NCBI GenBank assembly: GCA_964016885.1
Contig: OZ024744.1
Span: forward strand, 136,338,001 to 136,402,000
Direction of reading: 5' to 3'
Length of the DNA: 64,000 bases
DNA from: Eledone cirrhosa
Taxonomy: Eukaryota
The translations under genes and the position numbers were made by a program. Every line of letters begins with the position of its first letter. Within the stretch, counting starts at the first letter, position 1. The notes below the pieces were generated by a model that saw only the letters and a program-made list of their open reading frames with translations, had not been told where the DNA came from and ran no database searches. Below are positions 12,001-59,100 of this stretch, piece after piece.

Positions 12001-13205
12001 GTGTTGAGAGAGAAACCGTGTCTGAGAGGGATAGAATGTAGTGTGCGAGAGAGGAGACTGAGGTGCTATGGACATGTGATGTGTCGAGAGAGAAACTGTG
12101 TCTGAGAGGGATATAATGTAGTGTGCAAGAGAGGAGACTGAGGTGGTATGGACATGTGATGTGTTGAGAGAGAAACTGTGTCTGAGAGGGATATAATGTA
12201 GTGTGCGAGAGAGGAGACTGAGGTGGTATGGACATGTGATGTGTTGAGAGAGAAACTGTGTCTGAGAGGGATAGAATGTAGTGTAAGAGAGAGGAGACTG
12301 AGGTAGTATGGACATGTGATGAGTTGAGAGAGAAACTGTGTCTGAGAGGGATAGAATGTAGTGTGCGAGAGAGGAGACTGAGATGGTATGGACATGTGAT
12401 GTGTTGAGAGAGAAACTGTGTCTGAGAGGGATAGAATGTAGTGTGCGAGAGAGGAGACTGAGGTGGTATGGACATGTGATGACTTGAGAGAGAAAATGTC
12501 TGAGAGGGATAGAATGTAGTGTAAGAGAGAGGAGACTGAGGTAGTATGGACATGTGATGAGTTGAGAGAGAAACTGTGTCTGAGAGGGATAGAATATAGT
12601 GTGCGAGAGGAGGAGACTGAGGTGGTATGGACATGTGATGTGTTGAGAGAGAAACTGTGTCCGAGAGTGATAGAATGTAGTGTAAGAGAGAGGAGACTGA
12701 GGTGGTATGGACATGTGATGAGTTGAGAGAGAAACTGTGTCTGATAGGGATAGAATATAGTGTGCGAGAGGAGGAGACTGAGGTGGTATGGACATGTGAT
12801 GTGTTGAGAGAGAAACTGTCTGAGAGGGATAGAATGTAGTGTGTGAGAGAAGAGACTGAGGTGGTATGGACATGTGATGTGTTGAGAGAGAAACTGTGTC
12901 TGAGAGGGATAGAATGTAGTGTGCGAGAGAGGAGACTGAGGTGGTATGTACATGTGATGACTTGAGAGAGAAACTGTGTCTGAGAGAGATAGAATGTAGT
13001 GTACGAGAGAGGAGACTGAGGTGGTATGTACATGTGATGAATTGAGAGAGAAACTGTGTCTGAGAGAGATAGAATGTAGTGTGCGAGAGAGGAGACTGAG
13101 GTGGTACGGACATGTGATGTGTTGAGAGAGAAACTGTGTCTGAGAGGGATAGAATGTAGTGTACGGGAGAGGAGACAGGTGGTATGGACATGTGATGAGT
13201 TGAAA

Positions 13206-34200: not shown

Positions 34201-34221
34201 GAGAGGAGACTGAGGTGGTAT
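13206..34221. repeat. 10,478-bp higher-order tandem duplication of satellite (2 copies)
   Basis: Diagnostic variants recur at an exact 10,478 offset (13972/24450, 20164/30642, 22388/32866, 15481/25959, 17625/28103). The two 2013-aa artefact ORFs look identical. Boundaries are approximate. Confidence 0.9.
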
Positions 34222-34929
34222 GGACATGTGATGACTTGAGAGAGAAACTGTCTGACAGGGATAGAATGTAGTGTGCGAGAGGGGAGACTGAGGTAGTATA
34301 GACATGTGATGAATTGAGAGAGAAACTGTGTCTGAGAGGGATAGAATGTAGTGTGCGAAAGAGGAGACTGAGGTGGTATGGACATGTGATGAGTTGAGAG
34401 AGAAACTGTGTCTGAGAGAGATAGAATGTAGTGTGTGAGAGAGGAGACTGAGGTGGTATGGACATGTGATGTGTTGAGAGAGAAACTGTGTCTGAGAGAG
34501 ATAGAATGTAGTGTGTGAGAGGGGAGACTGAGGTGGTATGGACATGTGATGAGTTGAGAGAGAAACTGTCTGAGAGGGATAGAATGTAGTGTGCGAGAGA
34601 GGAGACTGAGGTGGTATGGACATGTGAAGTGTTGAGAGAGAAACTGTGTCTGAGAGTGATAGAATGTAGTGTAAGAGAGAGGAGACTGAGGTGGTATGGA
34701 CATGTGATGAGTTGAGAGAGAAACTGTGTCTGAGAGGGATAGAATATAGTGTGCGAGAGGAGGAGACTGAGGTGGTATGGACATGTGATGTGTTGAGAGA
34801 GAAACTGTGTCCGAGAGTGATAGAATGTAGTGTAAGAGAGAGGAGACTGAGGTGGTATGGACATGTGATGAGTTGAGAGAGAAACTGTGTCTGATAGGGA
34901 TAGAATATAGTGTGCGAGAGGAGGAGACT

Positions 34930-37900: not shown

Positions 37901-39200
37901 CTGTGTCTGAGAGGGATAGAATGTAGTGTACGGGAGAGGAGACAGGTGGTATGGACATGTGATGAGTTGAAAGAGAAACTGTGTCTGAGAGGGATAGAAT
38001 GTAGTGTGCGAGAGAGGAGACTGAGGTGGTATGAACATGTGATGAGTTGAAAGAGAAACTGTGTCTGAGAGGGATAGAATGTAGTGTGTGAGAGAGGAGA
38101 CAGGTGGTATGGACATGTGATGAGTTGAGAGAGAAACTCTGTCTGAGAGGGATAGAATGTAGTGTGCGAGAGAGGAGACTGAGGTGGTATGAACATGTGA
38201 TGAGTTGAAAGAGAAACTGTGTCTGAGAGGGATAGAATGTAGTGTGTGAGAGAGGAGACAGGTGGTGTGGACATGTGATGAGTTGAGAGAGAAACTGTGT
38301 CTGAGAGGTATAGAATGTAGTGTGCGAGAGAGGAGACTGAGGTGGTATGGACATGTGATGAGTTGAGAGAGAAACTGTGTCTGAGAGGGATAGAATGTAG
38401 TGTGCGAGAGAGGAGACGGAGGTGGTATGGACATGTGATGAGTTGAGAGAGAAACTGTGTCAGAGAGGGATAGAATGTAGTGTACGGGAGAGGAGACAGG
38501 TGGTATGAACATGTGATGAGTTGAGAAACTGTGTCTGAGAGGGATAGAATGTAGTGTGCGAGAGAGGAGACTGAGGTGGTATGGACATGTGATGACTTGA
38601 GAGAGAAACTGTGTCTGAGAGAGATAGAATGTAGTGTGTGAGAGAGGAGACTGAGGTGGTATGGACATGTGATGTGTTGTGAGAGAAACTGTGTCTGAGA
38701 GAGATAGAATGTAGTGTGTGAGAGGGGAGACTGAGGTGGTATAGACATGTGATGAGTTGAGAGAGAAACTGTGACTGAGAGGGATAGAATGTGGTGTGCG
38801 AGAGAGGAGACTGAGGTGGTATGGACATGTGATGTGTTGAGAGAGAAACCGTGTCTGAGAGGGATAGAATGTAGTGTGCGAGAGAGGAGACTGAGGTGCT
38901 ATGGACATGTGATGTGTCGAGAGAGAAACTGTGTCTGAGAGGGATATAATGTAGTGTGCGAGAGAGGAGACTGAGGTGGTATGGACATGTGATGTGTTGA
39001 GAGAGAAACTGTGTCTGAGAGGGATATAATGTAGTGTGCGAGAGAGGAGACTGAGGTGGTATGGACATGTGATGTGTTGAGAGAGAAACTGTGTCTGAGA
39101 GGGATAGAATGTAGTGTGCGAGAGAGGAGACTGAGGTGGTATGGACATGTGATGAGTTGAGAGAGAAACTGTCTGAGAGGGATAGAATGTAGTGTGTGAG
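34930..39200. repeat. 2,459-bp higher-order duplication
   Basis: Rare variants GTCAGA (36001/38460), GAGGTATA and GGTGTGG recur at offset 2459, as does the 36440/38899 marker. Boundaries are approximate. Confidence 0.8.
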
Positions 39201-42200
39201 AGAGGAGACTGAGGTGGTATGGACATGTGATGTGTTGAGAGAGAAACTGTGTCTGAGAAGGATAGAATGTAGTGTGCGAGAGAGGAGACTGAGGTGGTAT
39301 GGACATGTGATGACTTGAGAGAGAAACTGTCTGAGAGGGATAGAATGTAGTGTGCGAGAGGGGAGACTGAGGTAGTATAGACATGTGATGAATTGAGAGA
39401 GAAACTGTGTCTGAGAGGGATAGAATGTAGTGTACGGGAGAGGAGACTGAGGTGGTATGAACATGTGATGAGTTGAGAGAGAATCTGTGTCTGAGAGGGA
39501 TAGAATGTAGTGTGCGAGAGAGGAGACTGAGGTGGTATGGACATGTGATGAGTTGAGAGAGAAACTGTGTCTGAGAGAGATAGAATGTAGTGTGTGAGAG
39601 AGGAGACTGAGGTGGTATGGACATGTGATGTGTTGAGAGAGAAACTGTGTCTGAGAGAGATAGAATGTAGTGTGTGAGAGGAGAGACTGAGGTGGTATGG
39701 ACATGTGATGAGTTGAGAGAGAAACTGTCTGAGAGGGATAGAATGTAGTGTGCGAGAGAGGAGACTGAGGTGGTATGGACATGTGATGTGTTGAGAGAGA
39801 AACTGTGTCTGAGAGGGATAGAATGTAGTGTGCGAGAGAGGAGACTGAGGTGGTATGGACATGTGATGAGTTGAGAGAGAAACTGTGTCTGAGAGGGATA
39901 GAATGTAGTGTGCGAGAGAGGAGACTGAGGTGGTATGGACATGTGAAGTGTTGAGAGAGAAACTGTGTCTGAGAGAGATAGAATGTAGTGTGCGAGAGAG
40001 GAGACTGAGGTGGTATGGACATGTGATGAGTTGAGAGAGAAACTGTGTCTGAGAGGGATAGAATGTAGTGTGCGAGAGAGGAGACTGAGGTGGTATGGAC
40101 ATGTGAAGTGTTGAGAGAGAAACTGTGTCTGAGAGAGATAGAATGAAGTGTGCGAGAGAGGAGACAGGTGGTATGGACATGTGATGAGTTGAGAGAGAAA
40201 CTGTGTCTGAGAGGGATAGAATGTAGTCTGTGAGAGAGGGGACTGAGGTGGTATGGACATGTGATGTGTTGAGAGAGAAACTGTGTCTGAGAGGGATATA
40301 ATGTAGTGTGCGAGAGAGGAGACTGAGGTGGTATGGACATGTGATGTGTTGAGAGAGAAACTGTGTCTGAGAGGGATAGAATGTAGTGTGCGAGAGAGGA
40401 GACTGAGGTGGTATGGACATGTGATGTGTTGAGAGAGAAACTGTGTCTGAGAGGGATAGAATGTAGTGTGCGAGAGAGGAGACTGAGGTGGTATGGACAT
40501 GTGATGAGTTGAGAGGGATAGAATGTAGTGTAAGAGAGAGGAGACTGAGGTAGTATGGACATGTGATGAGTTGAGAGAGAAACTGTGTCTGAGAGGGATA
40601 GAATGTAGTGTGCGAGAGAGGAGACTGAGGTGGTATGGACATGTGATGTGTTGAGAGAGAAACTGTGTCTGAGAGGGATAGAATGTACTGTGCGAGAGAG
40701 GAGACTGAGGTGGTATGGACATGTGATGAGTTGAGAGAGAAACTGTGTCTGAGAGGGATAGAATGTAGTGTGCGAGAGAGGAGACTGAGATGGTATGGAC
40801 ATGTGATGTGTTGAGAGAGAAACTGTGTCTGAGAGGGATAGAATGTAGTGTGCGAGAGAGGAGACTGAGGTGGTATGGACATGTGATGACTTGAGAGAGA
40901 AACTGTCTGACAGGGATAGAATGTAGTGTGCGAGAGGGGAGACTGAGGTAGTATAGACATGTGATGAATTGAGAGAGAAACTGTGTCTGAGAGGGATAGA
41001 ATGTAGTGTGCGAAAGAGGAGACTGAGGTGGTATGGACATGTGATGAGTTGAGAGAGAAACTGTGTCTGAGAGAGATAGAATGTAGTGTGTGAGAGAGGA
41101 GACTGAGGTGGTATGGACATGTGATGACTTGAGAGAGAAACTGTCTGAGAGGGATAGAATGTAGTGTGTGAGAGAGGAGACTGAGGTGGTATGGACATGT
41201 GATGTGTTGTGAGAGAAACTGTGTCTGAGAGAGATAGAATGTAGTGTGTGAGAGGGGAGACTGAGGTGGTATAGACATGTGATGAGTTGAGAGAGAAACT
41301 GTGTCTGAGAGGGATAGAATGTAGTGTACGGGAGAGGAGACTGAGGTGGTATGAACATGTGATGAGTTGAGAGAGAAACTGTGTCTGAGAGGGATAGAAT
41401 GTAGTGTGTGAGAGGAGAGACTGAGGTGGTATGGACATGTGATGAGTTGAGATAGAAACTGTCTGAGAGGGATAGAATGTAGTGTGCGAGAGAGGAGACT
41501 GAGGTGGTATGGACATGTGAAGTGTTGAGAGAGAAACTGTGTCTGAGAGAGATAGAATGAAGTGTGCGAGAGAGGAGACAGGTGGTATGGACATGTGATG
41601 AGTTGAGAGAGAAACTGTGTCTGAGAGGGATAGAATGTAGTCTGTGAGAGAGGGGACTGAGGTGGTATGGACATGTGATGTGTTGAGAGAGAAACTGTGT
41701 CTGAGAGGGATATAATGTAGTGTGCGAGAGAGGAGACTGAGGTGGTATGGACATGTGATGTGTTGAGAGAGAAACTGTGTCTGAGAGGGATAGAATGTAG
41801 TGTGCGAGAGAGGAGACTGAGGTGGTATGGACATGTGATGTGTTGAGAGAGAAACTGTGTCTGAGAGGGATAGAATGTAGTGTGCGAGAGAGGAGACTGA
41901 GGTGGTATGGACATGTGATGAGTTGAGAGAGAAACTGTGTCTGAGAGGGATAGAATGTAGTGTAAGAGAGAGGAGACTGAGGTAGTATGGACATGTGATG
42001 AGTTGAGAGAGAAACTGTGTCTGAGAGGGATAGAATGTAGTGTGCGAGAGAGGAGACTGAGGTGGTATGGACATGTGATGTGTTGAGAGAGAAACTGTGT
42101 CTGAGAGGGATAGAATGTAGTGTGCGAGAGAGGAGACTGAGGTGGTATGGACATGTGATGAGTTGAGAGAGAAACTGTGTCTGAGAGGGATAGAATGTAG

Positions 42201-45200
42201 TGTAAGAGAGAGGAGACTGAGGTAGTATGGACATGTGATGAGTTGAGAGAGAAACTGTGTCTGAGAGGGATAGAATGTAGTGTGCGAGAGAGGAGACTGA
42301 GATGGTATGGACATGTGATGTGTTGAGAGAGAAACTGTGTCTGAGAGGGATAGAATGTAGTGTGCAAGAGAGGAGACTGAGGTGGTATGGACATGTGATG
42401 ACTTGAGAGAGAAACTGTCTGACAGGGATAGAATGTAGTGTGCGAGAGGGGAGACTGAGGTAGTATAGACATGTGATGAATTGAGAGAGAAACTGTGTCT
42501 GAGAGGGATAGAATGTAGTGTGCGAAAGAGGAGACTGAGGTGGTATGGACATGTGATGAGTTGAGAGAGAAACTGTGTCTGAGAGAGATAGAATGTAGTG
42601 TGTGAGAGAGGAGACTGAGGTGGTATGGACATGTGATGTGTTGAGAGAGAAACTGTGTCTGAGAGAGATAGAATGTAGTGTGTGAGAGGGGAGACTGAGG
42701 TGGTATGGACATGTGATGAGTTGAGAGAGAAACTGTCTGAGAGGGATAGAATGTAGTGTGCGAGAGAGGAGACTGAGGTGGTATGGACATGTGAAGTGTT
42801 GAGAGAGAAACTGTGTCTGAGAGTGATAGAATGTAGTGTAAGAGAGAGGAGACTGAGGTGGTATGGACATGTGATGAGTTGAGAGAGAAACTGTGTCAGA
42901 GAGGGATAGAATGTAGTGTACGGGAGAGGAGACAGGTGGTATGAACATGTGATGAGTTGAGAAACTGTGTCTGAGAGGGATAGAATGTAGTGTGCGAGAG
43001 AGGAGACTGAGGTGGTATGAACATGTGATGACTTGAGAGAGAAACTGTGTCTGAGAGAGATAGAATGTAGTGTGTGAGAGAGGAGACTGAGGTGGTATGG
43101 ACATGTGATGTGTTGTGAGAGAAACTGTGTCTGAGAGAGATAGAATGTAGTGTGTGAGAGGGGAGACTGAGGTGCTATGGACATGTGATGTGTCGAGAGA
43201 GAAACTGTGTCTGAGAGGGATATAATGTAGTGTGCGAGAGAGGAGACTGAGGTGGTATGGACATGTGATGTGTTGAGAGAGAAACTGTGTCTGAGAGGGA
43301 TATAATGTAGTGTGCGAGAGAGGAGACTGAGGTGGTATGGACATGTGATGTGTTGAGAGAGAAACTGTGTCTGAGAGGGATAGAATGTAGTGTGCGAGAG
43401 AGGAGACTGAGGTGGTATGGACATGTGATGAGTTGAGAGAGAAACTGTCTGAGAGGGATAGAATGTAGTGTGTGAGAGAGGAGACTGAGGTGGTATGGAC
43501 ATGTGATGTGTTGAGAGAGAAACTGTGTCTGAGAAGGATAGAATGTAGTGTGCGAGAGAGGAGACTGAGGTGGTATGGACATGTGATGACTTGAGAGAGA
43601 AACTGTCTGAGAGGGATAGAATGTAGTGTGCGAGAGGGGAGACTGAGGTAGTATAGACATGTGATGAATTGAGAGAGAAACTGTGTCTGAGAGGGATAGA
43701 ATGTAGTGTACGGGAGAGGAGACTGAGGTGGTATGAACATGTGATGAGTTGAGAGAGAAACTGTGTCTGAGAGGGATAGAATGTAGTGTGTGAGAGAGGA
43801 GACTGAGGTGGTATGGACATGTGATGAGTTGAGAGAGAAACTGTGTCTGAGAGAGATAGAATGTAGTGTGTGAGAGAGGAGACTGAGGTGGTATGGACAT
43901 GTGATGTGTTGAGAGAGAAACTGTGTCTGAGAGAGATAGAATGTAGTGTGTGAGAGGAGAGACTGAGGTGGTATGGACATGTGATGAGTTGAGAGAGAAA
44001 CTGTCTGAGAGGGATAGAATGTAGTGTGCGAGAGAGGAGACTGAGGTGGTATGGACATGTGAAGTGTTGAGAGAGAAACTGTGTCTGAGAGAGATAGAAT
44101 GAAGTGTGCGAGAGAGGAGACAGGTGGTATGGACATGTGATGAGTTGAGAGAGAAACTGTGTCTGAGAGGGATAGAATGTAGTCTGTGAGAGAGGAGACT
44201 GAGGTGGTATGGACATGTGAAGTGTTGAGAGAGAAACTGTGTCTGAGAGAGATAGAATGTAGTGTGCGAGAGAGGAGACTGAGGTGGTATGGACATGTGA
44301 TGTGTTGAGAGAGAAACTGTGTCTGAGAGGGATAGAATGTAGTGTGCGAGAGAGGAGACTGAGGTGGTATGGACATGTGATGAGTTGAGAGAGAAACTGT
44401 GTCTGAGAGGGATAGAATGTAGTGTAAGAGAGAGGAGACTGAGGTAGTATGGACATGTGATGAGTTGAGAGAGAAACTGTGTCTGAGAGGGATAGAATGT
44501 AGTGTGCGAGAGAGGAGACTGAGATGGTATGGACATGTGATGTGTTGAGAGAGAAACTGTGTCTGAGAGGGATAGAATGTAGTGTGCGAGAGAGGAGACT
44601 GAGGTGGTATGGACATGTGATGACTTGAGAGAGAAACTGTCTGACAGGGATAGAATGTAGTGTGCGAGAGGGGAGACTGAGGTAGTATAGACATGTGATG
44701 AATTGAGAGAGAAACTGTGTCTGAGAGGGATAGAATGTAGTGTGCGAAAGAGGAGACTGAGGTGGTATGGACATGTGATGAGTTGAGAGAGAAACTGTGT
44801 CTGAGAGAGATAGAATGTAGTGTGTGAGAGAGGAGACTGAGGTGGTATGGACATGTGATGTGTTGAGAGAGAAACTGTGTCTGAGAGAGATAGAATGTAG
44901 TGTGTGAGAGGGGAGACTGAGGTGGTATGGACATGTGATGAGTTGAGAGAGAAACTGTCTGAGAGGGATAGAATGTAGTGTGCGAGAGAGGAGACTGAGG
45001 TGGTATGGACATGTGAAGTGTTGAGAGAGAAACTGTGTCTGAGAGTGATAGAATGTAGTGTAAGAGAGAGGAGACTGAGGTGGTATGGACATGTGATGAG
45101 TTGAGAGAGAAACTGTGTCTGAGAGGGATAGAATATAGTGTGCGAGAGGAGGAGACTGAGGTGGTATGGACATGTGATGTGTTGAGAGAGAAACTGTGTC

Positions 45201-46327
45201 CGAGAGTGATAGAATGTAGTGTAAGAGAGAGGAGACTGAGGTGGTATGGACATGTGATGAGTTGAGAGAGAAACTGTGTCTGATAGGGATAGAATACAGT
45301 GTGCGAGAGGAGGAGACTGAGGTGGTATGGACATGTGATGTGTTGAGAGAGAAACTGTCTGAGAGGGATAGAATGTAGTGTGTGAGAGAAGAGACTGAGG
45401 TGGTATGGACATGTGATGTGTTGAGAGAGAAACTGTGTCTGAGAGGGATAGAATGTAGTGTGCGAGAGAGGAGACTGAGGTGGTATGTACATGTGATGAC
45501 TTGAGAGAGAAACTGTGTCTGAGAGAGATAGAATGTAGTGTACGAGAGAGGAGACTGAGGTGGTATGTACATGTGATGAATTGAGAGAGAAACTGTGTCT
45601 GAGAGAGATAGAATGTAGTGTGCGAGAGAGGAGACTGAGGTGGTATGGACATGTGATGTGTTGAGAGAGAAACTGTGTCTGAGAGGGATAGAATGTAGTG
45701 TACGGGAGAGGAGACAGGTGGTATGGACATGTGATGAGTTGAAAGAGAAACTGTGTCTGAGAGGGATAGAATGTAGTGTGCGAGAGAGGAGACTGAGGTG
45801 GTATGAACATGTGATGAGTTGAAAGAGAAACTGTGTCTGAGAGGGATAGAATGTAGTGTGTGAGAGAGGAGACAGGTGGTATGGACATGTGATGAGTTGA
45901 GAGAGAAACTCTGTCTGAGAGGGATAGAATGTAGTGTGCGAGAGAGGAGACTGAGGTGGTATGGACATGTGATGTGTTGAGAGAGAAACTGTGTCTGAGA
46001 GAGATAGAATGTAGTGTGTGAGAGGAGAGACTGAGGTGGTATGGACATGTGATGAGTTGAGAGAGAAACTGTCTGAGAGGGATAGAATGTAGTGTGCGAG
46101 AGGGGAGACTGAGGTAGTATAGACATGTGATGAATTGAGAGAGAAACTGTGTCTGAGAGGGATAGAATGTAGTGTACGGGAGAGGAGACTGAGGTGGTAT
46201 GAACATGTGATGAGTTGAGAGAGAAACTGTGTCTGAGAGGGATAGAATGTAGTGTGCGAGAGAGGAGACTGAGGTGGTATGGACATGTGATGAGTTGAGA
46301 GAGAAACTGTGTCTGAGAGAGATAGAA

Positions 46328-46831
46328 CTAGCTAGAAAAATGCGTACAGCAAAAAAAAGTAATATTGTTGGAACAAACCTTTAAAAATACAGGACAAGGA
46401 AGTAAGATAAACCTTTAAAAATACAGGACAAAGAACTAAGATAAAACTTTAAAAGAATAGGACAAGGAATATAAATTTTTACAATATATATATATATACG
46501 ATATAAAACAAATGGAAACTACATTTATAAAACCATATTTATTTCATTACATATATTTCAAGGATATCATATTAAAAATATGGTATGCCCTCTTCAGATA
46601 AAATATATGTAATGAAATAAATATGGTTTTATAAATGTAGTTTCCATTTGTTTTATATCGTATATATATATATATTGTAAAAATTTATATTCCTTGTCCT
46701 ATTCTTTTAAAGTTTTATCTTAGTTCTTTGTCCTGTATTTTTAAAGGTTTATCTTACTTCCTTGTCCTGTATTTTTAAAGGTTTGTTCCAACAATATTAC
46801 TTTTTTTTGCTGTACGCATTTTTCTAGCTAG
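46328..46831. repeat. Long inverted repeat (fold-back): 231-bp arms, 42-bp spacer
   Basis: 46328-46558 is the reverse complement of 46601-46831 (CTAGCTAGAAAAATGCGTACAGC...GCTGTACGCATTTTTCTAGCTAG). No mismatch or indel was seen by eye. The spacer is 46559-46600. Confidence 0.97.
46375..46470. repeat. ~34-bp tandem repeat x~2.7 within the fold-back arm
   Basis: AAACCTTTAAAAATACAGGACAAGGAAGTAAGAT repeated with decay and mirrored in the right arm at ~46689-46784. Confidence 0.85.
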
Positions 46832-47298
46832 TTTCCTATTTTTCAAGGCAATGCAAACAACAACTACTTAATTAAATAGTTATTACTTTAGTTACTTCTA
46901 TCAAAAAATCCCAAAAATGATGTTAATGAAAACTATAGGTGAAAGTGAAGCTATTCTTTTGTGACCTCTTAGTTACTTGTACCAATTTTGAATTTAATTC
47001 AAGCTACAGTGTCAGCCTGTGCATTGGAGTCACAGAAATAAGTTGAGATATTTTATCTAATTGGTACAAGCATCCACTCCACATGGCGGGGACATAGGTC
47101 AGATCGTGGAGCACTCACCTATCTTAAAAATATTAACTTATGATAAATAAGAGTCATTTAAGAAAATACAATTTTTTTAAATTAGTAGGTGAGCATTAAC
47201 AACTGAATCTAAATGGAGCAAATTTGCACCATTTGCATTTAGTTGAAAATAACATTTTAATTAAACATGACAAATTCTAATGCAATAGAAGGCAAATA

Positions 47299-47563
47299 TC
47301 AATTTTCACATGCAAATTTTTTTGGGATTTTTTTCACGCGCGCCATTTTTGGTCGATTTTTTGTCAATTTTTCACATGCAAATTTTTTTGGGTTTTTTTG
47401 ATTTTTTTTCACGCGCGCCATTTTTGTCGATTTTTTGTCAATTTTTCACATGATAATTTTTTTTTGGATTTTTGGATTTTCTTCACGCACGCCATTTTTG
47501 TCGATTTTTTGTCAATTTTTCACATGATAATTTTTTTTGGATTTTTGTATTTTCTTCACGCGC
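47299..47563. repeat. 65-74-bp T-rich minisatellite, ~3.7 copies
   Basis: Unit TCAATTTTTCACATG...TTCACGCGCGCCATTTTTGTCGATTTTTTG starts at 47299, 47364, 47438 and 47512. Length varies mostly in poly-T runs. Confidence 0.92.
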
Positions 47564-47971
47564 TTTTTGGTATGCATTATTCATATGTTTTGCTTGTTCT
47601 GATTGTCTTTTTTCTTTTATTTCAGCAGCTTTCCGTTTTTTATACTCCCTATTCCTAATGGCATTTTTTCTCCGTTTTTCATTCTCTTTATGAATTTTTT
47701 GATCTTTGGGACATTCGGAAGCACTATCAGTCTCATTGAATTCAAATTCAGGTCCAGGATTTAATTCAACACAACCGATAATAAGCAATGATAAGATCAG
47801 TGCACGTGTTCTATATTTCTGATTGGAAATCGGGTAAATTCGTTTATTGGATTTGTAAAAAGCCGCCTGAATGTGAATTTCATCATTCGAATTGCCCGAT
47901 TGTGGAATTGTTTCATTCGAAATGGAAATATTGCATTTTCGCGCCAGGCAAAAAAGTAATAAGCCGATCAA
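47483..47971 (-). pseudogene. Transposon-type ORF remnant with 2A-like motif followed by a K/R/E-rich segment
   Basis: The 162-codon frame contains RTRALILSLLIIGCVELNPGP (47812-47750), then KENEKRRKNAIRNREYKKRKAAEIKEKRQ. The start is TTG with no in-frame ATG before the motif (upstream stop at 48086-48088), and the frame ends inside the minisatellite. Confidence 0.55.
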
Positions 47972-48127
47972 AAAGCCGCGAAACGTATATGGTGACTTTT
48001 TTCGAAAGCCGCGAAACGTATGAAGTGACCTTTTGCGATTTTTTTGCGACCATTTTGGCGAGACTTTTGCAGGGAAACAAATTTTTCATTTGTAATAGTC
48101 AAAATAAATAAGCCGATAAAAAAGCCG
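47958..48127. repeat. Short direct repeats upstream of the ORF remnant
   Basis: AAAGCCGCGAAACGTAT occurs twice, 33 bp apart (47972, 48005). AATAAGCCGAT(C)AAAAAGCCG occurs at ~47958 and ~48107. Confidence 0.7.
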
Positions 48128-48469
48128 AGAGACGTCATTTTCATATGTCAAATGAGCACACTATTCGCACCTATCGCAAATGAGTTCACTACTCGCACCT
48201 ATCGGTACAAAAAATAGCACAACTATTCACAACTATTAGTACAAATCCAAATGATTTTCTGAATTTCTAGTATATCAATCAGCGACTGCTTTGAAAGAGA
48301 ACAATGCAGTGAGTGATTACTCATTTGAATATAAATAGAAGACAACCTCAACTAGTTTGCAACGTGTGACCACTTATCGCGAGATAGGAGAACATAATAG
48401 CTCCTAATTAGCTCAATGATTAATGTTTACTGCCACATTGTATCAACATTTAAAATTCAAATTCAAAAA

Positions 48470-49031
48470 AATAACCGCAGTCACTGGGGGGGGGGGTTCA
48501 AATAACCACCGCACCCCGAATAACCGCAGTCACTAGGGGGGGTTCGAATAAGACCCTCACCCCAAATAACAGCAGTCACTGGGGGAGGGTTCGAATAAGC
48601 GCCTCACCCCGAATAATCGCAGTCACTGTGGGGGGGGGGGTTCGAATAAGCGCCGCACCCCGAATAACCGCAGTCACTGTGGGGGGGGGGGGGGTTCGAA
48701 TAAGCGCCTCACCCCGAATAATCGCAGTCACTGGGGGAGGGTTCGAATAAGCGCCGCACCCCGAATAACCGCAGTCACTGGGGGGAGGGTTCGAATAAGC
48801 GCCGCACCCCGAATAATCGCAGTCACTGGGGGGAGGGTTCGAATAAGCGCCGCACCCCGAATAACCGCAGTCACTGGGGGGAGGGTTCGAATAAGCGCCG
48901 CACCCCGAATAATCGCAGTCACTGGGGGGAGGGTTCGAATAAGCGGGGGGGGGGGTTCGAATAAGCGTCTCACCCCGAATAATCGCAGTCACTGGGGGAG
49001 GGTTCGAATAAGCGCCGCACCCCGAATAACC
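48470..49031. repeat. GC-rich ~48-bp minisatellite, ~11 copies with variable poly-G tract
   Basis: Unit CAGTCACTGGGGGGAGGGTTCGAATAAGCGCCGCACCCCGAATAA(C/T)CG. CAGTCACT occurs at 48478, 48527, 48573, 48620, 48671, 48725, 48772, 48820, 48868, 48916 and 48986. Confidence 0.96.
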
Positions 49032-49067
49032 CCTTATCCTCCTCTGACCGGTCCCAAGAGATGCATC

Positions 49068-49342
49068 AAATGCACAGAGCGTCACCCTTACTCACTCACT
49101 TACTCACTTGAACACAGTTTTTTTCAGCAAACTTTGATCATAACTTTTTTTGTGCTGAACGAAATTTCGAGATTTTTAGCTTATATATAAGAGATGTGCA
49201 ATGATTTACTCTCCATGCTCATATAACTTTCATGTGATTTTGATAATCGGAAGACATTCTAATAATGCTGTAAAGAGACGATTGCCAACGAAATCACTAA
49301 GACAACAATATTATTACTAAACCGACTACCGTCGGTTTAGGA
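49068..49342. repeat. Terminal module, internal copy (275 bp)
   Basis: Near-identical to 49835-50100. It includes an (ACTC)-like microsatellite and ends with hairpin CTAAACCGAC-TACC-GTCGGTTTAG (49317-49340) + GA, followed by (TA)n. Confidence 0.95.
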
Positions 49343-49519
49343 TATATATATATATATATACAAATGAAAAAATTAATATGTTGCGTACATATCTAAAATC
49401 TAATTTGCAAACAAAATGTTCACTTGCATACTATATTGGATATATACCAGATGTAATCTCCGATTTATACAATTTAAGTATTTAAATCATATTTGCGTAC
49501 ATGCGTAATGAGTACGAAA

Positions 49520-49523
<4 letters not shown>

Positions 49524-49570
<47 letters not shown>
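49524..49570. repeat. (AT)n microsatellite, ~23 units
   Basis: Perfect AT run. A shorter run lies at 49342-49360. Confidence 0.97.
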
Positions 49571-49576
<6 letters not shown>

Positions 49577-49727
49577 CGTTCATACAAACATACAAGTATA
49601 ATCATATTTATGAAGGTTATATGCATTTATACATAGACATTATACATACTTATTTAATAATACCAACACCAGAACCAAACATTTCTTAATAAAACAACAA
49701 TAATCATTTATTTCTTGATATTTACAC

Positions 49728-49810
49728 GAAGAAGAAGAAGAAGAAGAAGAAAATGATGATGAGGGAGGGGGGGGGGAGAAAGAGGAACAAAACAAGTGGA
49801 GGAGGAGGGG
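49728..49810. repeat. (GAA)8 microsatellite and purine-rich low-complexity tract
   Basis: (GAA)8 at 49728-49751, then GAT/GGA/poly-G runs. Confidence 0.9.
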
Positions 49811-49834
49811 GATTATTGGAGTCGGAAGAAGAGA

Positions 49835-50100
49835 AAATGCACAGAGCGTCACCCTTACTCACTCACTTACTCACTTGAACACAGTTTTTTTCAGCAAACT
49901 TTGATCATAACTTTTTTTGTGCTGAACGAAATTTCGAGATTTTTAGCTTAAGAGATGTGCAATGATTTACTCTCCATGCTCATATAACTTTCATGTGATT
50001 TTGATAATCGGAAGACATTCTAATAATGCTGTAAAGAGACGATTGCCAACGAAATCACTAAGACAACAATATTACTAAACCGACTGCCGTCGGTTTAGGA
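49835..50100. repeat. Terminal module, outer copy (266 bp)
   Basis: It differs from the internal copy by a 6-bp indel (GCTT[ATATAT]AAG), a 3-bp indel in CAACAATATT[ATT]ACT and one loop base. It forms the element boundary. Confidence 0.95.
50075..50098. other. Terminal stem-loop (10-bp stem, 4-nt loop)
   Basis: CTAAACCGAC-TGCC-GTCGGTTTAG lies 2 bp from the element end. The stem is identical in both module copies while the loop differs. Confidence 0.9.
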
Positions 50101-53100
50101 TGTAGTGTGTGAGAGAGGAGACTGAGGTGGTATGGACATGTGATGTGTTGAGAGAGAAACTGTGTCTGAGAGAGATAGAATGTAGTGTGTGAGAGGAGAG
50201 ACTGAGGTGGTATGGACATGTGATGAGTTGAGAGAGAAACTGTCTGAGAGGGATAGAATGTAGTGTGCGAGAGAGGAGACTGAGGTGGTATGGACATGTG
50301 AAGTGTTGAGAGAGAAACTGTGTCTGAGAGAGATAGAATGAAGTGTGCGAGAGAGGAGACAGGTGGTATGGACATGTGATGAGTTGAGAGAGAAACTGTG
50401 TCTGAGAGGGATAGAATGTAGTCTGTGAGAGAGGGGACTGAGGTGGTATGGACATGTGATGTGTTGAGAGAGAAACTGTGTCTGAGAGGGATATAATGTA
50501 GTGTGCGAGAGAGGAGACTGAGGTGGTATGGACATGTGATGTGTTGAGAGAGAAACTGTGTCTGAGAGGGATAGAATGTAGTGTGCGAGAGAGGAGACTG
50601 AGGTGGTATGGACATGTGATGTGTTGAGAGAGAAACTGTGTCTGAGAGGGATGGAATGTAGTGTGCGAGAGAGGAGACTGAGGTGGTATGGACATGTGAT
50701 GAGTTGAGAGAGAAACTGTGTCTGAGAGGGATAGAATGTAGTGTAAGAGAGAGGAGACTGAGGTAGTATGGACATGTGATGAGTTGAGAGAGAAACTGTG
50801 TCTGAGAGGGATAGAATGTAGTGTGCGAGAGAGGAGACTGAGGTGGTATGGACATGTGATGTGTTGAGAGAGAAACTGTGTCTGAGAGGGATAGAATGTA
50901 GTGTGCGAGAGAGGAGACTGAGGTGGTATGGACATGTGATGAGTTGAGAGAGAAACTGTGTCTGAGAGGGATAGAATGTAGTGTAAGAGAGAGGAGACTG
51001 AGGTAGTATGGACATGTGATGAGTTGAGAGAGAAACTGTGTCTGAGAGGGATAGAATGTAGTGTGCGAGAGAGGAGACTGAGATGGTATGGACATGTGAT
51101 GTGTTGAGAGAGAAACTGTGTCTGAGAGGGATAGAATGTAGTGTGCGAGAGAGGAGACTGAGGTGGTATGGACATGTGATGACTTGAGAGAGAAACTGTC
51201 TGACAGGGATAGAATGTAGTGTGCGAGAGGGGAGACTGAGGTAGTATAGACATGTGATGAATTGAGAGAGAAACTGTGTCTGAGAGGGATAGAATGTAGT
51301 GTGCGAAAGAGGAGACTGAGGTGGTATGGACATGTGATGAGTTGAGAGAGAAACTGTGTCTGAGAGAGATAGAATGTAGTGTGTGAGAGAGGAGACTGAG
51401 GTGGTATGGACATGTGATGTGTTGAGAGAGAAACTGTGTCTGAGAGAGATAGAATGTAGTGTGTGAGAGGGGAGACTGAGGTGGTATGGACATGTGATGA
51501 GTTGAGAGAGAAACTGTCTGAGAGGGATAGAATGTAGTGTGCGAGAGAGGAGACTGAGGTGGTATGGACATGTGAAGTGTTGAGAGAGAAACTGTGTCTG
51601 AGAGTGATAGAATGTAGTGTAAGAGAGAGGAGACTGAGGTGGTATGGACATGTGATGAGTTGAGAGAGAAACTGTGTCTGAGAGGGATAGAATATAGTGT
51701 GCGAGAGGAGGAGACTGAGGTGGTATGGACATGTGATGTGTTGAGAGAGAAACTGTGTCCGAGAGTGATAGAATGTAGTGTAAGAGAGAGGAGACTGAGG
51801 TGGTATGGACATGTGATGAGTTGAGAGAGAAACTGTGTCTGATAGGGATAGAATATAGTGTGCGAGAGGAGGAGACTGAGGTGGTATGGACATGTGATGT
51901 GTTGAGAGAGAAACTGTCTGAGAGGGATAGAATGTAGTGTGTGAGAGAAGAGACTGAGGTGGTATGGACATGTGATGTGTTGAGAGAGAAACTGTGTCTG
52001 AGAGGGATAGAATGTAGTGTGCGAGAGAGGAGACTGAGGTGGTATGTACATGTGATGACTTGAGAGAGAAACTGTGTCTGAGAGAGATAGAATGTAGTGT
52101 ACGAGAGAGGAGACTGAGGTGGTATGTACATGTGATGAATTGAGAGAGAAACTGTGTCTGAGAGAGATAGAATGTAGTGTGCGAGAGAGGAGACTGAGGT
52201 GGTATGGACATGTGATGTGTTGAGAGAGAAACTGTGTCTGAGAGGGATAGAATGTAGTGTACGGGAGAGGAGACAGGTGGTATGGACATGTGATGAGTTG
52301 AAAGAGAAACTGTGTCTGAGAGGGATAGAATGTAGTGTGCGAGAGAGGAGACTGAGGTGGTATGAACATGTGATGAGTTGAAAGAGAAACTGTGTCTGAG
52401 AGGGATAGAATGTAGTGTGTGAGAGAGGAGACAGGTGGTATGGACATGTGATGAGTTGAGAGAGAAACTCTGTCTGAGAGGGATAGAATGTAGTGTGCGA
52501 GAGAGGAGACTGAGGTGGTATGAACATGTGATGAGTTGAAAGAGAAACTGTGTCTGAGAGGGATAGAATGTAGTGTGTGAGAGAGGAGACAGGTGGTATG
52601 GACATGTGATGAGTTGAGAGAGAAACTGTGTCTGAGAGGGATAGAATGTAGTGTGCGAGAGAGGAGACGGAGGTGGTATGGACATGTGATGAGTTGAGAG
52701 AGAAACTGTGTCTGAGAGGGATAGAATGTAGTGTACGGGAGAGGAGACAGGTGGTATGAACATGTGATGAGTTGAGAAACTGTGTCTGAGAGGGATAGAA
52801 TGTAGTGTAAGAGAGAGGAGACTGAGGTAGTATGGACATGTGATGAGTTGAGAGAGAAACTCTGTCTGAGAGGGATCGAATGTAGTGTGCGAGAGAGGAG
52901 ACTGAGGTGGTATGAACATGTGATGAGTTGAGAGAGAAACTGTGTCTGAGAGGGATAGAATGTAGTGTACGGGAGAGGAGACAGGTGGTATGAACATGTG
53001 ATGAGTTGAGAAACTGTGTCTGAGAGGGATAGAATGTAGTGTGCGAGAAAGGAGACTGAGGTGGTATGGACATGTGATGACTTGAGAGAGAAACTGTGTC

Positions 53101-56100
53101 TGAGAGAGATAGAATGTAGTGTGTGAGAGAGGAGACTGAGGTGGTATGGACATGTGATGTGTTGTGAGAGAAACTGTGTCTGAGAGAGATAGAATGTAGT
53201 GTGTGAGAGGGGAGACTGAGGTGGTATAGACATGTGATGAGTTGAGAGAGAAACTGTGACTGAGAGGGATAGAATGTGGTGTGCGAGAGAGGAGACTGAG
53301 GTGGTATGGACATGTGATGTGTTGAGAGAGAAACCGTGTCTGAGAGGGATAGAATGTAGTGTGCGAGAGAGGAGACTGAGGTGCTATGGACATGTGATGT
53401 GTCGAGAGAGAAACTGTGTCTGAGAGGGATATAATGTAGTGTGCGAGAGAGGAGACTGAGGTGGTATGGACATGTGATGTGTTGAGAGAGAAACTGTGTC
53501 TGAGAGGGATATAATGTAGTGTGCGAGAGAGGAGACTGAGGTGGTATGGACATGTGATGTGTTGAGAGAGAAACTGTGTCTGAGAGGGATAGAATGTAGT
53601 GTACGGGAGAGGAGACAGGTGGTATGAACATGTGATGAGTTGAGAGAGAAACTGTGTCTGAGAGGGATAGAATGTAGTGTGCGAGAGAGGAGACTGAGGT
53701 GGTATGGACATGTGATGAGTTGAGAGAGAAACTGTGTCTGAGAGAGATAGAATGTAGTGTGTGAGAGAGGAGACTGAGGTGGTATGGACATGTGATGTGT
53801 TGAGAGAGAAACTGTGTCTGAGAGAGATAGAATGTAGTGTGTGAGAGGAGAGACTGAGGTGGTATGGACATGTGATGAGTTGAGAGAGAAACTGTCTGAG
53901 AGGGATAGAATGTAGTGTGCGAGAGAGGAGACTGAGGTGGTATGGACATGTGAAGTGTTGAGAGAGAAACTGTGTCTGAGAGAGATAGAATGTAGTGTGT
54001 GAGAGAGGAGACTGAGGTGGTATGGACATGTGATGTGTTGAGAGAGAAACTGTGTCTGAGAGGGATAGAATGTAGTGTGCGAGAGAGGAGACTGAGGTGG
54101 TATGGACATGTGATGAGTTGAGAGAGAAACTGTGTCTGAGAGGGATAGAATGTAGTGTAAGAGAGAGGAGACTGAGGTAGTATGGACATGTGATGAGTTG
54201 AGAGAGAAACTGTGTCTGAGAGGGATAGAATGTAGTGTGCGAGAGAGGAGACTGAGGTGGTATGGACATGTGATGTGTTGAGAGAGAAACTGTGTCTGAG
54301 AGGGATAGAATGTAGTGTGCGAGAGAGGAGACTGAGGTGGTATGGACATGTGATGAGTTGAGAGAGAAACTGTGTCTGAGAGGGATAGAATGTAGTGTAA
54401 GAGAGAGGAGACTGAGGTAGTATGGACATGTGATGAGTTGAGAGAGAAACTGTGTCTGAGAGGGATAGAATGTAGTGTGCGGGAGAGGAGACTGAGGTGG
54501 TATGGACATGTGATGTGTTGAGAGAGAAACTGTGTCTGAGAGGGATAGAATGTAGTGTGCGAGAGAGGAGACTGAGGTGGTATGGACATGTGATGACTTG
54601 AGAGAGAAACTGTCTGACAGGGATAGAATGTAGTGTGCGAGAGGGGAGACTGAGGTAGTATAGACATGTGATGAATTGAGAGAGAAACTGTGTCTGAGAG
54701 GGATAGAATGTAGTGTGCGAAAGAGGAGACTGAGGTGGTATGGACATGTGATGAGTTGAGAGAGAAACTGTGTCTGAGAGAGATAGAATGTAGTGTGTGA
54801 GAGAGGAGACTGAGGTGGTATGGACATGTGATGTGTTGAGAGAGAAACTGTGTCTGAGAGAGATAGAATGTAGTGTACTTTGTGAGTGGGGAGACTGAGG
54901 TGGTATGGACATGTGATGAGTTGAGAGAGAAACTGTCTGAGAGGGATAGAATGTAGTGTGCGAGAGAGGAGACTGAGGTGGTATGGACATGTGAAGTGTT
55001 GAGAGAGAAACTGTGTCTGAGAGTGATAGAATGTAGTGTAAGAGAGAGGAGACTGAGGTGGTATGGACATGTGATGAGTTGAGAGAGAAACTGTGTCTGA
55101 GAGGGATAGAATATAGTGTGCGAGAGGAGGAGACTGAGGTGGTATGGACATGTGATGTGTTGAGAGAGAAACTGTGTCCGAGAGTGATAGAATGTAGTGT
55201 AAGAGAGAGGAGACTGAGGTGGTATGGACATGTGATGAGTTGAGAGAGAAACTGTGTCTGATAGGGATAGAATATAGTGTGCGAGAGGAGGAGACTGAGG
55301 TGGTATGGACATGTGATGTGTTGAGAGAGAAACTGTCTGAGAGGGATAGAATGTAGTGTGTGAGAGAAGAGACTGAGGTGGTATGGACATGTGATGTGTT
55401 GAGAGAGAAACTGTGTCTGAGAGGGATAGAATGTAGTGTGCGAGAGAGGAGACTGGTGGTATGGACATGTGATGAGTTGAGAGAGAAACTGTGTCTAAGA
55501 GGGATAGAATGTAGTGTGCGAGAGAGGAGACTGAGGTGGTATGTACATGTGATGACTTGAGAGAGAAACTGTCTGAGACGGATAGAATGTAGTGTGCGAG
55601 AGGGGAGACTGAGGTGGTATGGACATGTGATGAGTTGAGAGAGAAACTGTGTCTGAGATGGATAGAATGTAGTGTACGAGAGAGGAGACTGAGGTGGTAT
55701 GTACATGTGATGAATTGAGAGAGAAACTGTGTCTGAGAGAGATAGAATGTAGTGTGCGAGAGAGGAGACTGAGGTGGTATGGACATGTGATGTGTTGAGA
55801 GAGAAACTGTGTCTGAGAGGGATAGAATGTAGTGTACGGGAGAGGAGACAGGTGGTATGGACATGTGATGAGTTGAGAGAGAAACTGTGTCTGAGAGGGA
55901 TAGAATGTAGTGTGCGAGAGAGGAGACTGAGGTGGTATGGACATGTGATGAGTTGAGAGAGAAACTGTGTCTGAGAGAGATAGAATGTAGTGTGTGAGAG
56001 AGGAGACTGAGGTGGTATGGACATGTGATGTGTTGAGAGAGAAACTGTGTCTGAGAGAGATAGAATGTAGTGTGTGAGAGGAGAGACTGAGGTGGTATGG

Positions 56101-59100
56101 ACATGTGATGAGTTGAGAGAGAAACTGTCTGAGAGGGATAGAATGTAGTGTGCGAGAGAGGAGACTGAGGTGGTATGGACATGTGAAGTGTTGAGAGAGA
56201 AACTGTGTCTGAGAGAGATAGAATGTAGTGTGTGAGAGAGGAGACTGAGGTGGTATGGACATGTGATGTGTTGAGAGAGAAACTGTGTCTGAGAGGGATA
56301 GAATGTAGTGTGCGAGAGAGGAGACTGAGGTGGTATGGACATGTGATGAGTTGAGAGAGAAACTGTGTCTGAGAGGGATAGAATGTAGTGTAAGAGAGAG
56401 GAGACTGAGGTAGTATGGACATGTGATGAGTTGAGAGAGAAACTGTGTCTGAGAGGGATAGAATGTAGTGTGCGAGAGAGGAGACTGAGGTGGTATGGAC
56501 ATGTGATGTGTTGAGAGAGAAACTGTGTCTGAGAGGGATAGAATGTAGTGTGCGAGAGAGGAGACTGAGGTGGTATGGACATGTGATGAGTTGAGAGAGA
56601 AACTGTGTCTGAGAGGGATAGAATGTAGTGTAAGAGAGAGGAGACTGAGGTAGTATGGACATGTGATGAGTTGAGAGAGAAACTGTGTCTGAGAGGGATA
56701 GAATGTAGTGTGCGGGAGAGGAGACTGAGGTGGTATGGACATGTGATGTGTTGAGAGAGAAACTGTGTCTGAGAGGGATAGAATGTAGTGTGCGAGAGAG
56801 GAGACTGAGGTGGTATGGACATGTGATGACTTGAGAGAGAAACTGTCTGACAGGGATAGAATGTAGTGTGCGAGAGGGGAGACTGAGGTAGTATAGACAT
56901 GTGATGAATTGAGAGAGAAACTGTGTCTGAGAGGGATAGAATGTAGTGTGCGAAAGAGGAGACTGAGGTGGTATGGACATGTGATGAGTTGAGAGAGAAA
57001 CTGTGTCTGAGAGAGATAGAATGTAGTGTGTGAGAGAGGAGACTGAGGTGGTATGGACATGTGATGTGTTGAGAGAGAAACTGTGTCTGAGAGAGATAGA
57101 ATGTAGTGTACTTTGTGAGTGGGGAGACTGAGGTGGTATGGACATGTGATGAGTTGAGAGAGAAACTGTCTGAGAGGGATAGAATGTAGTGTGCGAGAGA
57201 GGAGACTGAGGTGGTATGGACATGTGAAGTGTTGAGAGAGAAACTGTGTCTGAGAGTGATAGAATGTAGTGTAAGAGAGAGGAGACTGAGGTGGTATGGA
57301 CATGTGATGAGTTGAGAGAGAAACTGTGTCTGAGAGGGATAGAATATAGTGTGCGAGAGGAGGAGACTGAGGTGGTATGGACATGTGATGTGTTGAGAGA
57401 GAAACTGTGTCCGAGAGTGATAGAATGTAGTGTAAGAGAGAGGAGACTGAGGTGGTATGGACATGTGATGAGTTGAGAGAGAAACTGTGTCTGATAGGGA
57501 TAGAATATAGTGTGCGAGAGGAGGAGACTGAGGTGGTATGGACATGTGATGTGTTGAGAGAGAAACTGTCTGAGAGGGATAGAATGTAGTGTGTGAGAGA
57601 AGAGACTGAGGTGGTATGGACATGTGATGTGTTGAGAGAGAAACTGTGTCTGAGAGGGATAGAATGTAGTGTGCGAGAGAGGAGACTGGTGGTATGGACA
57701 TGTGATGAGTTGAGAGAGAAACTGTGTCTAAGAGGGATAGAATGTAGTGTGCGAGAGAGGAGACTGAGGTGGTATGTACATGTGATGACTTGAGAGAGAA
57801 ACTGTCTGAGACGGATAGAATGTAGTGTGCGAGAGGGGAGACTGAGGTGGTATGGACATGTGATGAGTTGAGAGAGAAACTGTGTCTGAGATGGATAGAA
57901 TGTAGTGTACGAGAGAGGAGACTGAGGTGGTATGTACATGTGATGAATTGAGAGAGAAACTGTGTCTGAGAGAGATAGAATGTAGTGTGCGAGAGAGGAG
58001 ACTGAGGTGGTATGGACATGTGATGTGTTGAGAGAGAAACTGTGTCTGAGAGGGATAGAATGTAGTGTACGGGAGAGGAGACAGGTGGTATGGACATGTG
58101 ATGAGTTGAAAGAGAAACTGTGTCTGAGAGGGATAGAATGTAGTGTGCGAGAGAGGAGACTGAGGTGGTATGAACATGTGATGAGTTGAAAGAGAAACTG
58201 TGTCTGAGAGGGATAGAATGTAGTGTGTGAGAGAGGAGACAGGTGGTATGGACATGTGATGAGTTGAGAGAGAAACTGTGTCTGAGAGGGATAGAATGTA
58301 GTGTGCGAGAGAGGAGACTGAGGTGGTATGGACATGTGATGAGTTGAGAGAGAAACTGTGTCTGAGAGGGATAGAATGTAGTGTGCGAGAGAGGAGACGG
58401 AGGTGGTATGGACATGTGATGAGTTGAGAGAGAAACTGTGTCTGAGAGGGATAGAATGTAGTGTACGGGAGAGGAGACAGGTGGTATGAACATGTGATGA
58501 GTTGAGAAACTGTGTCTGAGAGGGATAGAATGTAGTGTGCGAGAGAGGAGACTGAGGTGGTATGGACATGTGATGACTTGAGAGAGAAACTGTGTCTGAG
58601 AGAGATAGAATGTAGTGTGTGAGAGAGGAGACTGAGGTGGTATGGACATGTGATGTGTTGTGAGAGAAACTGTGTCTGAGAGAGATAGAATGTAGTGTGT
58701 GAGAGGGGAGACTGAGGTGGTATAGACATGTGATGAGTTGAGAGAGAAACTGTGACTGAGAGGGATAGAATGTGGTGTGCGAGAGAGGAGACTGAGGTGG
58801 TATGGACATGTGATGTGTTGAGAGAGAAACCGTGTCTGAGAGGGATAGAATGTAGTGTGCGAGAGAGGAGACTGAGGTGCTATGGACATGTGATGTGTCG
58901 AGAGAGAAACTGTGTCTGAGAGGGATATAATGTAGTGTGCGAGAGAGGAGACTGAGGTGGTATGGACATGTGATGTGTTGAGAGAGAAACTGTGTCTGAG
59001 AGGGATAGAATGTAGTGTGCGAGAGAGGAAACTGAGGTGGTATGGACATGTGATGAGTTGAGAGAGAAACTGTCTGAGAGGGATAGAATGTAGTGTGCGA

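Follow-up and report, generated by a model that had tools for sequence, protein, structure and literature searches.

What kind of transposable element carries the ends of a canonical Helitron together with the subterminal signals of a Helentron? The question is raised by a 64,000-nt stretch of the genome of Eledone cirrhosa (hereafter the window; GenBank assembly GCA_964016885.1, contig OZ024744.1, positions 136,338,001 to 136,402,000 of the forward strand), in which an insertion of 3773 bp (46328..50100, minus strand, 5'-TC...CTAG-3') forms the single interruption of an 80-bp satellite. It is non-autonomous and derives, by deletion, from an 11.2-kb element that is present twice in the genome. 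This element is Helitron-like in manner and HLE2 by its protein, and is neither a canonical Helitron nor a Helentron. The new part of it is a module of long inverted arms at the 3' end, demonstrated for this genome only. Comparisons with published systems refer to the available portions of the cited articles.

The satellite occupies both flanks (1..46327 and 50101..64000, plus strand) and continues in phase beyond the insertion, which lies between an A and a T of the repeat. The junctions read GATAGAA|CTAG at 46328 and GGA|TGTAGT at 50100, and the unbroken target site, GATAGAATGTAGT, occurs 636 times in the window. An earlier note on this DNA, made from the letters alone, had described an insertion without target-site duplication whose minus strand reads A|TC...CTAG|T, with the empty site present in hundreds of satellite copies; the junctions, the phase of the satellite and the count agree with that description. 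The 13-bp inverted repeat that it had placed near both ends also stands. The 13-mer lies at 46358-46370 and its inverted copy, which starts 24 nt inside the TC end, at 50064-50076 (minus strand); when the two 60-nt ends were shuffled 5000 times, no inverted match of 13 nt came up, the longest reaching 11. The stem-loop reported to adjoin the right-hand copy is a hairpin with a 10-bp stem (50075-50098, -10.2 kcal/mol), which together with the TC makes up the 5' end (50075..50100, minus strand). The note had overlooked a perfect inverted repeat with 233-nt arms, a second TC end and the main feature of the element, the 3' inverted-arm module. Positions 46326-46833 form a perfect palindrome, with a 42-nt spacer between the arms, which includes a third 13-mer (46789-46801) and a second CTAGCTAG (46824-46831), and the TC end is doubled, one copy spanning 49835-50100 and another ending at 49342.

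Both ends of the insertion match dozens of near-identical genomic copies, here called family F1, and related copies were assigned to four further families (F2 to F5). At the 30 F1 loci fetched the left end was present in every case and the right end in 28, the other two not having been fetched far enough, so that the two ends stand together in 28 of 30 copies. The 13-mer, whose conservation had been in question, is identical in F2. An A precedes TC in 104 of 105 distinct flanks (F1 46/46, F2 38/39, F3 15/15, F4 5/5), after exclusion of nine F1 5' flanks as hairpin duplications. CTRG is followed by T in 81 of 81 (F1 32/32, F2 36/36, F3 11/11, F4 2/2), with 3, 8, 2 and 3 3' flanks of F1 to F4 excluded as mirrors from the inner arm. 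The earlier note had also asked whether other copies show target duplications or different boundaries. Among 82 full elements, 74 show at most 7 matching flank nucleotides, mostly TA runs. Of the eight with longer matches, six lie in tandem arrays, which supply extra empty sites, one is unclear, and one (L085) is a possible exception: it is flanked by a 27-bp direct duplication with no more units on either side, possibly a rare target duplication.

When the reading frame remnant of the window copy (47560..48085, minus strand) was used as a query, two 11.2-kb elements with the same ends and the same module were recovered (on G000:C13 and C10); a genome search with Pfam PF14214 ranked canonical Helitrons at the top and did not reach this partner. 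The window copy is 98-99.6% identical in four blocks to the C13 element (G000:C13:18885149-18896352) and lacks ~7.5 kb of it, a deletion found in 21 of 31 F1 copies. The partner's reading frame starts ~1.2 kb from the TC and runs toward the CTAG, which makes TC the 5' end. The earlier note had noticed mixed Helitron and Helentron signals implying opposite orientations; the mixture was correctly seen, and the frame settles the conflict.

The partner protein matches Helitron_like_N (E 1.5e-26), PIF1 (E 3.2e-20), DUF6570 (E 9.2e-18) and, at its C-terminus, UCH (E 2.2e-10). According to Li et al. (2024, PMC11417382), DUF6570 is a marker of HLE2, and UCH is enriched in its subgroups c and d. Judged by its sequence, the protein is of the HLE2 (Helentron/Helitron2) clade. 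An apurinic endonuclease domain had no Pfam match at E 0.05 in the partner protein, where UCH is found instead, and SET and TIR domains had no match in the RepHel frames, these frames alone having been scanned. Compared with Helraiser, the partner protein gives E 2.7e-15 over 1025 aa; Helraiser compared with a canonical Helitron of the same genome gives E 2.1e-113 over 382 aa. In a quick IQ-TREE of 66 Rep regions, from which 6 rows of <300 aa, F5 among them, were excluded and which contained no named Repbase HLE2, the six rows of F1-F4 form one branch with a support of 100 in the Shimodaira-Hasegawa-like approximate likelihood ratio test (SH-aLRT). An SH-aLRT of 99 separates the 59-row side that holds F1-F4 from seven Helraiser-like rows, at a place where long branches meet. 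The F1 protein nests among HLE2-type proteins, and the intermediate status that the earlier note had entertained is not shown. Two Helraiser-like (HLE1-side) proteins, P0029 and P0030, also carry UCH, so UCH by itself is no HLE2 marker.

These results bear on whether the insertion is simply an ordinary Helentron/HINE, to be read on the plus strand with its 3' end carrying the stem-loop and with a TT target. At the right end, read on the plus strand, a 13-bp subterminal repeat does precede a stem-loop, as in DINE-1, and the 13-bp subterminal inverted repeats, internal tandem repeats and HLE2 protein are all shared with the Helentron/HINE/DINE-1 group as described (PMC4067079); moreover, a few HLE2s are known to have their reading frames reversed. 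However, a TT target had to be rejected, since the only possible junction registers are A|T and AT|N and N is variable. Four families conserve TC and CTRG on the minus strand, the C-terminal endonuclease of Helentrons is lacking, the hairpin differs in position, and the duplicated end is the TC end, as with the multiple 5' termini of the FoHeli elements of Fusarium oxysporum. We therefore hold this reading to be very improbable.

The 3' end proved to be the more unusual one. The left 1115 bp of F1 always consist of two 188-bp inverted arms around a 739-bp loop (30 loci), and a module of this layout, 0.45-1.1 kb long with two inverted arms of 140-220 bp and a loop between them, was found in all five families of the genome. 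Both arms are present at 30/30 F1 loci and 9/10 F3 loci, as well as in F2, F4 and one F5 locus. F2, whose Rep is 88-89% identical to that of F1, has the same 13-mer, ends in CTGG|T and begins its inner arm with CCAG; its 5' hairpin carries a compensated change from a C-G to a G-C pair relative to F1. F3 has 62% Rep identity to F1 and open frames of 2230-2245 aa. Its 5' end is A|TC with a longer hairpin, the loop of which shares a different 10-mer with arms of ~220 bp. The arms measure ~140 bp in F4 and 148 bp in F5, a family represented by a single locus at which no 5' end was found. Short asymmetric terminal inverted repeats of the HLE2 kind are present in the form of the 13-mer (F1/F2) and the 10-mer (F3/F4), and the motif common to the 5' end and the arms changes jointly from one pair of families to the other. 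The inner junction is A|CYAG in all five families. Within one copy the arms differ by 0-5 substitutions in 130 nt, against 12-13 between F1 and F2 and ~37 substitutions plus 10 gaps between F1 and F3, and these differences are mirrored in both arms. No stable short 3' hairpin was found in the five families, the last 45-61 nt folding at -1.2 to -4.5 kcal/mol.

The loops of F1, F2, F3/F4 and F5 have no mutual similarity by blastn or tblastx. That of F1 contains a Cys-rich frame of 139-202 aa (L162:3169-3585), open in 45 near-identical copies, and a search with its protein gave 47 matches among 68 candidates; the 139-aa form had no Pfam match at E 5, and its best Atlas score (0.82, to PHD-finger clusters) is a lead only. 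The F2 loop holds a different sequence, which is GC-rich, frameshifted and Cys-containing. Such a structure could be taken for a separate cut-and-paste transposon with terminal inverted repeats, or a miniature inverted-repeat transposable element (MITE), inserted as a 1.1-kb unit in the terminal CTAG. The long terminal inverted repeats and the small Cys-rich frame of F1 would suit it, and CTAGCTAG can be read as a 4-bp duplication. A nested element with a CTAG duplication was nevertheless rejected, because the outer tetramers in F2 (CCAG/CTGG) are inverted and not direct. In addition, the short motif found at the 5' end of the Helitron itself recurs in the arms, in two versions, all 33 loop-bearing copies examined sit at the 3' end of such an element, and one layout recurs in five families with four unrelated loops. 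Of the readings considered here we find this one the least credible.

What is directly established comprises both ends and the A|T target, the orientation and the class of the protein, and the presence of the module in five families together with its survival in multi-copy deletion derivatives. Our analysis of these findings leads us to think it somewhat more likely than not that the two long 3' arms anneal within the displaced strand and serve as the stop signal of an HLE2-clade Helitron with TC/CTAG ends. Helraiser cannot do without its 5' end, and its 3' hairpin brings strand displacement to a close (PMC4778049). By analogy, RepHel would nick at A|TC beside the 5' hairpin, guided by the short family-specific motif ~25 nt inside, and the helicase would displace the strand 5' to 3'. 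Once freed, the outer arm would anneal to the inner arm to give a duplex of 140-220 bp, which would offer a double-stranded copy of the motif ~30 nt from the end. The CTRG|T at the base of the stem would be the cut site, and the severed strand would then be joined either to the 5' end or to a fresh A|T site. In this way the long stem would stand in for the short 3' hairpin of canonical Helitrons, and the loop, being unconstrained, could be swapped, shortened and sometimes inverted.

If both arms are needed, copies that have suffered deletions should bear on the matter. Exact arm motifs occur 863 times (F1/F2) and 2145 times (F3/F4) in the genome, and a hand count among the first 100 matches listed of each on contig C1 gave 33 and 40 inverted pairs, respectively, 0.25-1.1 kb apart. 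Among those listed, 34 F1/F2 matches were unpaired; 20 of these were fetched, and 13 had both arms (two with a damaged outer arm). Of the 20 unpaired F3/F4 matches listed, 19 were fetched, and a second, mismatched arm was found in 19/19. Most of these belong to an older, multi-copy F4 derivative of ~1.2 kb, with a module of ~445 bp, in which both arms (at least ~137 bp) are kept. F2 derivatives down to 1.5 kb retain the whole module, and the multi-copy deletion lineages number two in F1, about four in F2 and one in F4. In 19 old copies the divergence between the two arms (0.055) equals that to the arms of other copies (0.057-0.060), and therefore the arms were alike at insertion and host repair seldom equalises them later.

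The module might instead be the fossil of a reverse self-insertion, an event proposed for FoHeli (PMC5148889), with arms that serve no purpose and stay similar through conversion or template switching now and then in master copies, the outer arm alone being needed. The A|CYAG inner junction of all five families fits a reverse insertion into A|T, arm-to-arm copying is seen in L088 and in the window, and correct 3' ends without an inner arm exist in one F3 copy and four F2 copies. In the F1 copy L088 a private change is present in both arms (1/33 copies), with one-arm changes in 8/33. However, the arms are matched across families that are ~37 substitutions and 10 gaps apart, yet drift independently in old resident copies. 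The loop has shrunk in a multi-copy derivative that retained both arms, both of the one-armed junctions tested are single-copy, and no other strong 3' hairpin is present. We consider the fossil unlikely, although it has to be taken seriously.

Several points weigh against a terminator made of paired arms. The folding of the arms and their role in stopping are what we infer from the arrangement of the copies. Of the same 20 F1/F2 matches, four had the outer arm only, two the inner arm only and one a cut inner arm. The one-armed junctions tested for copy number were two, both of F2, each giving a full-length match to itself only among 40 scored candidates. The deletion lineages are few and may be derived from one another. 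Arm-to-arm copying occurs with no known tie to transposition, both in L088 and in the window copy, which is mirrored through a nested repeat, and the inner junction A|CTAG is the exact product expected of a reverse self-insertion. Relatives in metagenomes speak in the same direction: the module was not seen in 29 loci with >1.5 kb downstream of the helicase, out of 80 loci fetched. Ten inverted pairs in nine loci were inspected, none of them ending in CTRG, and the pairs of five further loci were not inspected; these relatives are ~30-40% identical and many of the contigs are cut short, which makes the evidence weak. A viral collection gave two weak matches.

The state of the F1 enzyme belongs with these points. 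An identical in-frame stop follows residue 1904, inside the helicase, in both full-length F1 copies (L161:7562-7564; L163), though F1 copies are near-identical; either the active enzyme lies elsewhere, or read-through of the stop takes place. A sequencing run with the same species label has no gap at the stop site either. Run X4, labelled as a different organism, yields contigs ~98% identical to the F1 frame (L161:4000-9200) with a 3-base gap at that site, and two other organisms of the same study contain next to none of the words of the frame. The F1 frame in run X4 reflects either a close relative or horizontal transfer.

The stem could also have its use after the cut rather than before it. 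The 3'-OH left at CTRG, paired on the inner arm, would then prime synthesis of the second strand and yield a double-stranded donor, a route comparable to the self-priming of parvovirus terminal hairpins. The geometry is suitable, since the last base at the 3' end is paired with the inner arm's first base and the body would serve as template, and loops are found in both orientations. Helraiser for its part requires double-stranded donors and makes double-stranded circles (PMC5876387). A rolling-hairpin cycle would be expected to invert about half of the loops, however, and inversions number 1/33 in F1, 0/34 in F2 copies with a loop, 0/9 in F3 and 2/22 in the short F4 family (3 of these 22 being one repeated segment). 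The inner and outer arms of one F2 copy, moreover, often differ in repeat number, so one arm is not copied anew from the other with every jump. Flip-flop of the loop in every cycle is thus unsupported, and priming without flipping is possible. Priming as the reason for the stem is decidedly unlikely in our estimate, a little more so than the fossil.

A wider proposal can be built on paired arms as terminator, and we put it forward tentatively, as somewhat less than an even chance. These families would constitute a distinct rolling-circle lineage in which a 140-220 bp fold-back stem replaces the terminator hairpin, reconstitutes a double-stranded site for the transposase, determines where the 3' end is cut and may serve as primer for the second strand. 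The loop would then be a cargo slot, refilled with unrelated DNA that includes small Cys-rich frames.

At the 5' end, duplication is common. At least two TC ends were found in 19 of 31 F1 loci, and the window copy and 11 other loci have the same outer 266-bp piece and the same spacer start. Their outer flanks differ, and the compound element must therefore have moved as a unit from the outermost TC. The extra ends may have arisen when a short 5' piece located upstream was used as a new start; some FoHeli copies likewise have several 5' termini (PMC5148889). In the window the additional copy of the element's first 266 bp (49835..50100, minus strand) is followed by a spacer of ~490 bp (49343..49834), which is absent from the autonomous partner, and by the original 5' end with its hairpin (49317..49342, minus strand), where the 13-mer carries a 3-nt insertion. 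Next come 48-bp tandem repeats of the 5' region (48470..49014), the RepHel remnant left by the ~7.5-kb deletion, and, downstream of the reading frame that was deleted, 74-bp tandem repeats (47319..47563). A VELNPGP motif, which we take to be 2A-like, stands at ~47750-47770, close to the beginning of the F1 RepHel frame; a motif search did not find it in the F3 frame.

The module of the window copy begins with an inner arm (46668..46831, minus strand) that has kept 164 of 188 bp, including the A|CTAG at its start and the third 13-mer, and it closes with the outer arm (46328..46491, minus strand), which holds the terminal 13-mer and ends CTAG|T. The segment between them (46492..46667) has (TA)n and a fold-back palindrome (46498-46661) of a repeat family, 'Y', in place of the 739-bp F1 loop. 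A first look gave 1336 candidates for 'Y', which sits in (TA)n and consists of an 88-bp head followed by the fold-back palindrome. The turning point of the palindrome varies between copies, from 151 to 456 bp (L182-L193), and the structure suggests that the strand folded back during copying. Other unusual arrangements were also encountered. At L155 (G000:C15:42865450-42871378) two F1 bodies are joined tail to tail through one 275-bp loopless module, giving a 6-kb palindromic element with a TC end on both sides, and at L333 an F2 copy is followed, 2 nt after its 3' end, by the start of an F3 5' end. At G000:C20:3.5-5.2 Mb and C27:13.6-15.5 Mb, Rep matches of canonical Helitrons are spaced 100-170 kb apart along a single strand, perhaps as part of a very large tandem unit.

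How much of this has been described before? The earlier note had called the combination of signals possibly undescribed, which does not hold: an HLE2 protein with a 5' stem-loop and short inverted repeats is known in proto-Helentron and in 'HLE2-reverse', and CTAG-3' with an A|T target in proto-Helentron. Compared by description, the proto-Helentron of Phytophthora infestans (PMC4067079, PMC11417382) has an HLE2 RepHel without endonuclease, CTAG-3', insertion at A|T with no duplication, a 5' stem-loop and ~12-nt inverted repeats. It differs in starting with TT and in carrying SET and TIR domains, where the present element starts with TC and has UCH fused to the helicase; in the present element, moreover, the motif adjoins the 5' hairpin or lies within it, and the 3' inverted-arm module is present. 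The FoHeli or 'HLE2-reverse' elements (Chellapan et al. 2016, PMC5148889; Li et al. 2024) resemble it in the HLE2 protein, the 5' hairpin and asymmetric inverted repeats of 12-16 bp, whose 3' copy sits 20-50 nt from the end; FoHeli3-5 are without a 3' hairpin. Unlike it, FoHelis end in ATTTT or CTCCTGT and not in CTRG, and no long 3' arms are described for them in the available text. HLE2 subgroups c and d (Li et al. 2024) share DUF6570 and UCH, a likeness by domains only. With canonical Helitrons (HLE1; Helraiser, PMC4778049, PMC5876387) the element shares 5'-TC, CTRR-3' and an A|T target without duplication, but its protein is distant, no short hairpin lies upstream of CTRR, and it has a subterminal repeat and a 5' hairpin.

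In the portions of the literature covered, mixed ends of this kind are reported only from Phytophthora and Fusarium (PMC4067079, PMC5148889, PMC11417382). For the long-armed 3' module no description was found in that literature, which included the HELIANO supplement text and PMC13085455; Repbase, Dfam, subscription papers and supplement figures lay outside this coverage.

The survey of 404 genomes by Li et al. (2024, PMC11417382) has, in its available portions, nothing that resembles proto-Helentron, and the presence of the TC...CTRG form in a 3-Gb genome therefore widens its range. For classification, TC...CTRR ends with an A|T target are insufficient to identify HLE1, and repeat finders may break an element of this type up into a spurious MITE and a fragment. 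Hundreds of scattered inverted repeats of 0.45-1.1 kb are, for the host genome, likely sites of inversion and template switching. As to mechanism, how HLE2 elements recognise their ends and stop is not worked out experimentally in the available text of PMC11417382, PMC4067079 and PMC5148889, and the accessible accounts of Helraiser leave open the route by which the displaced strand becomes double-stranded (PMC5876387, PMC4778049). The families described here offer a natural test set for such questions: the matched motifs differ between two lineages, the long arms lend themselves to deletion or compensation, and F3 contributes copies whose frames of 2230 aa are open.

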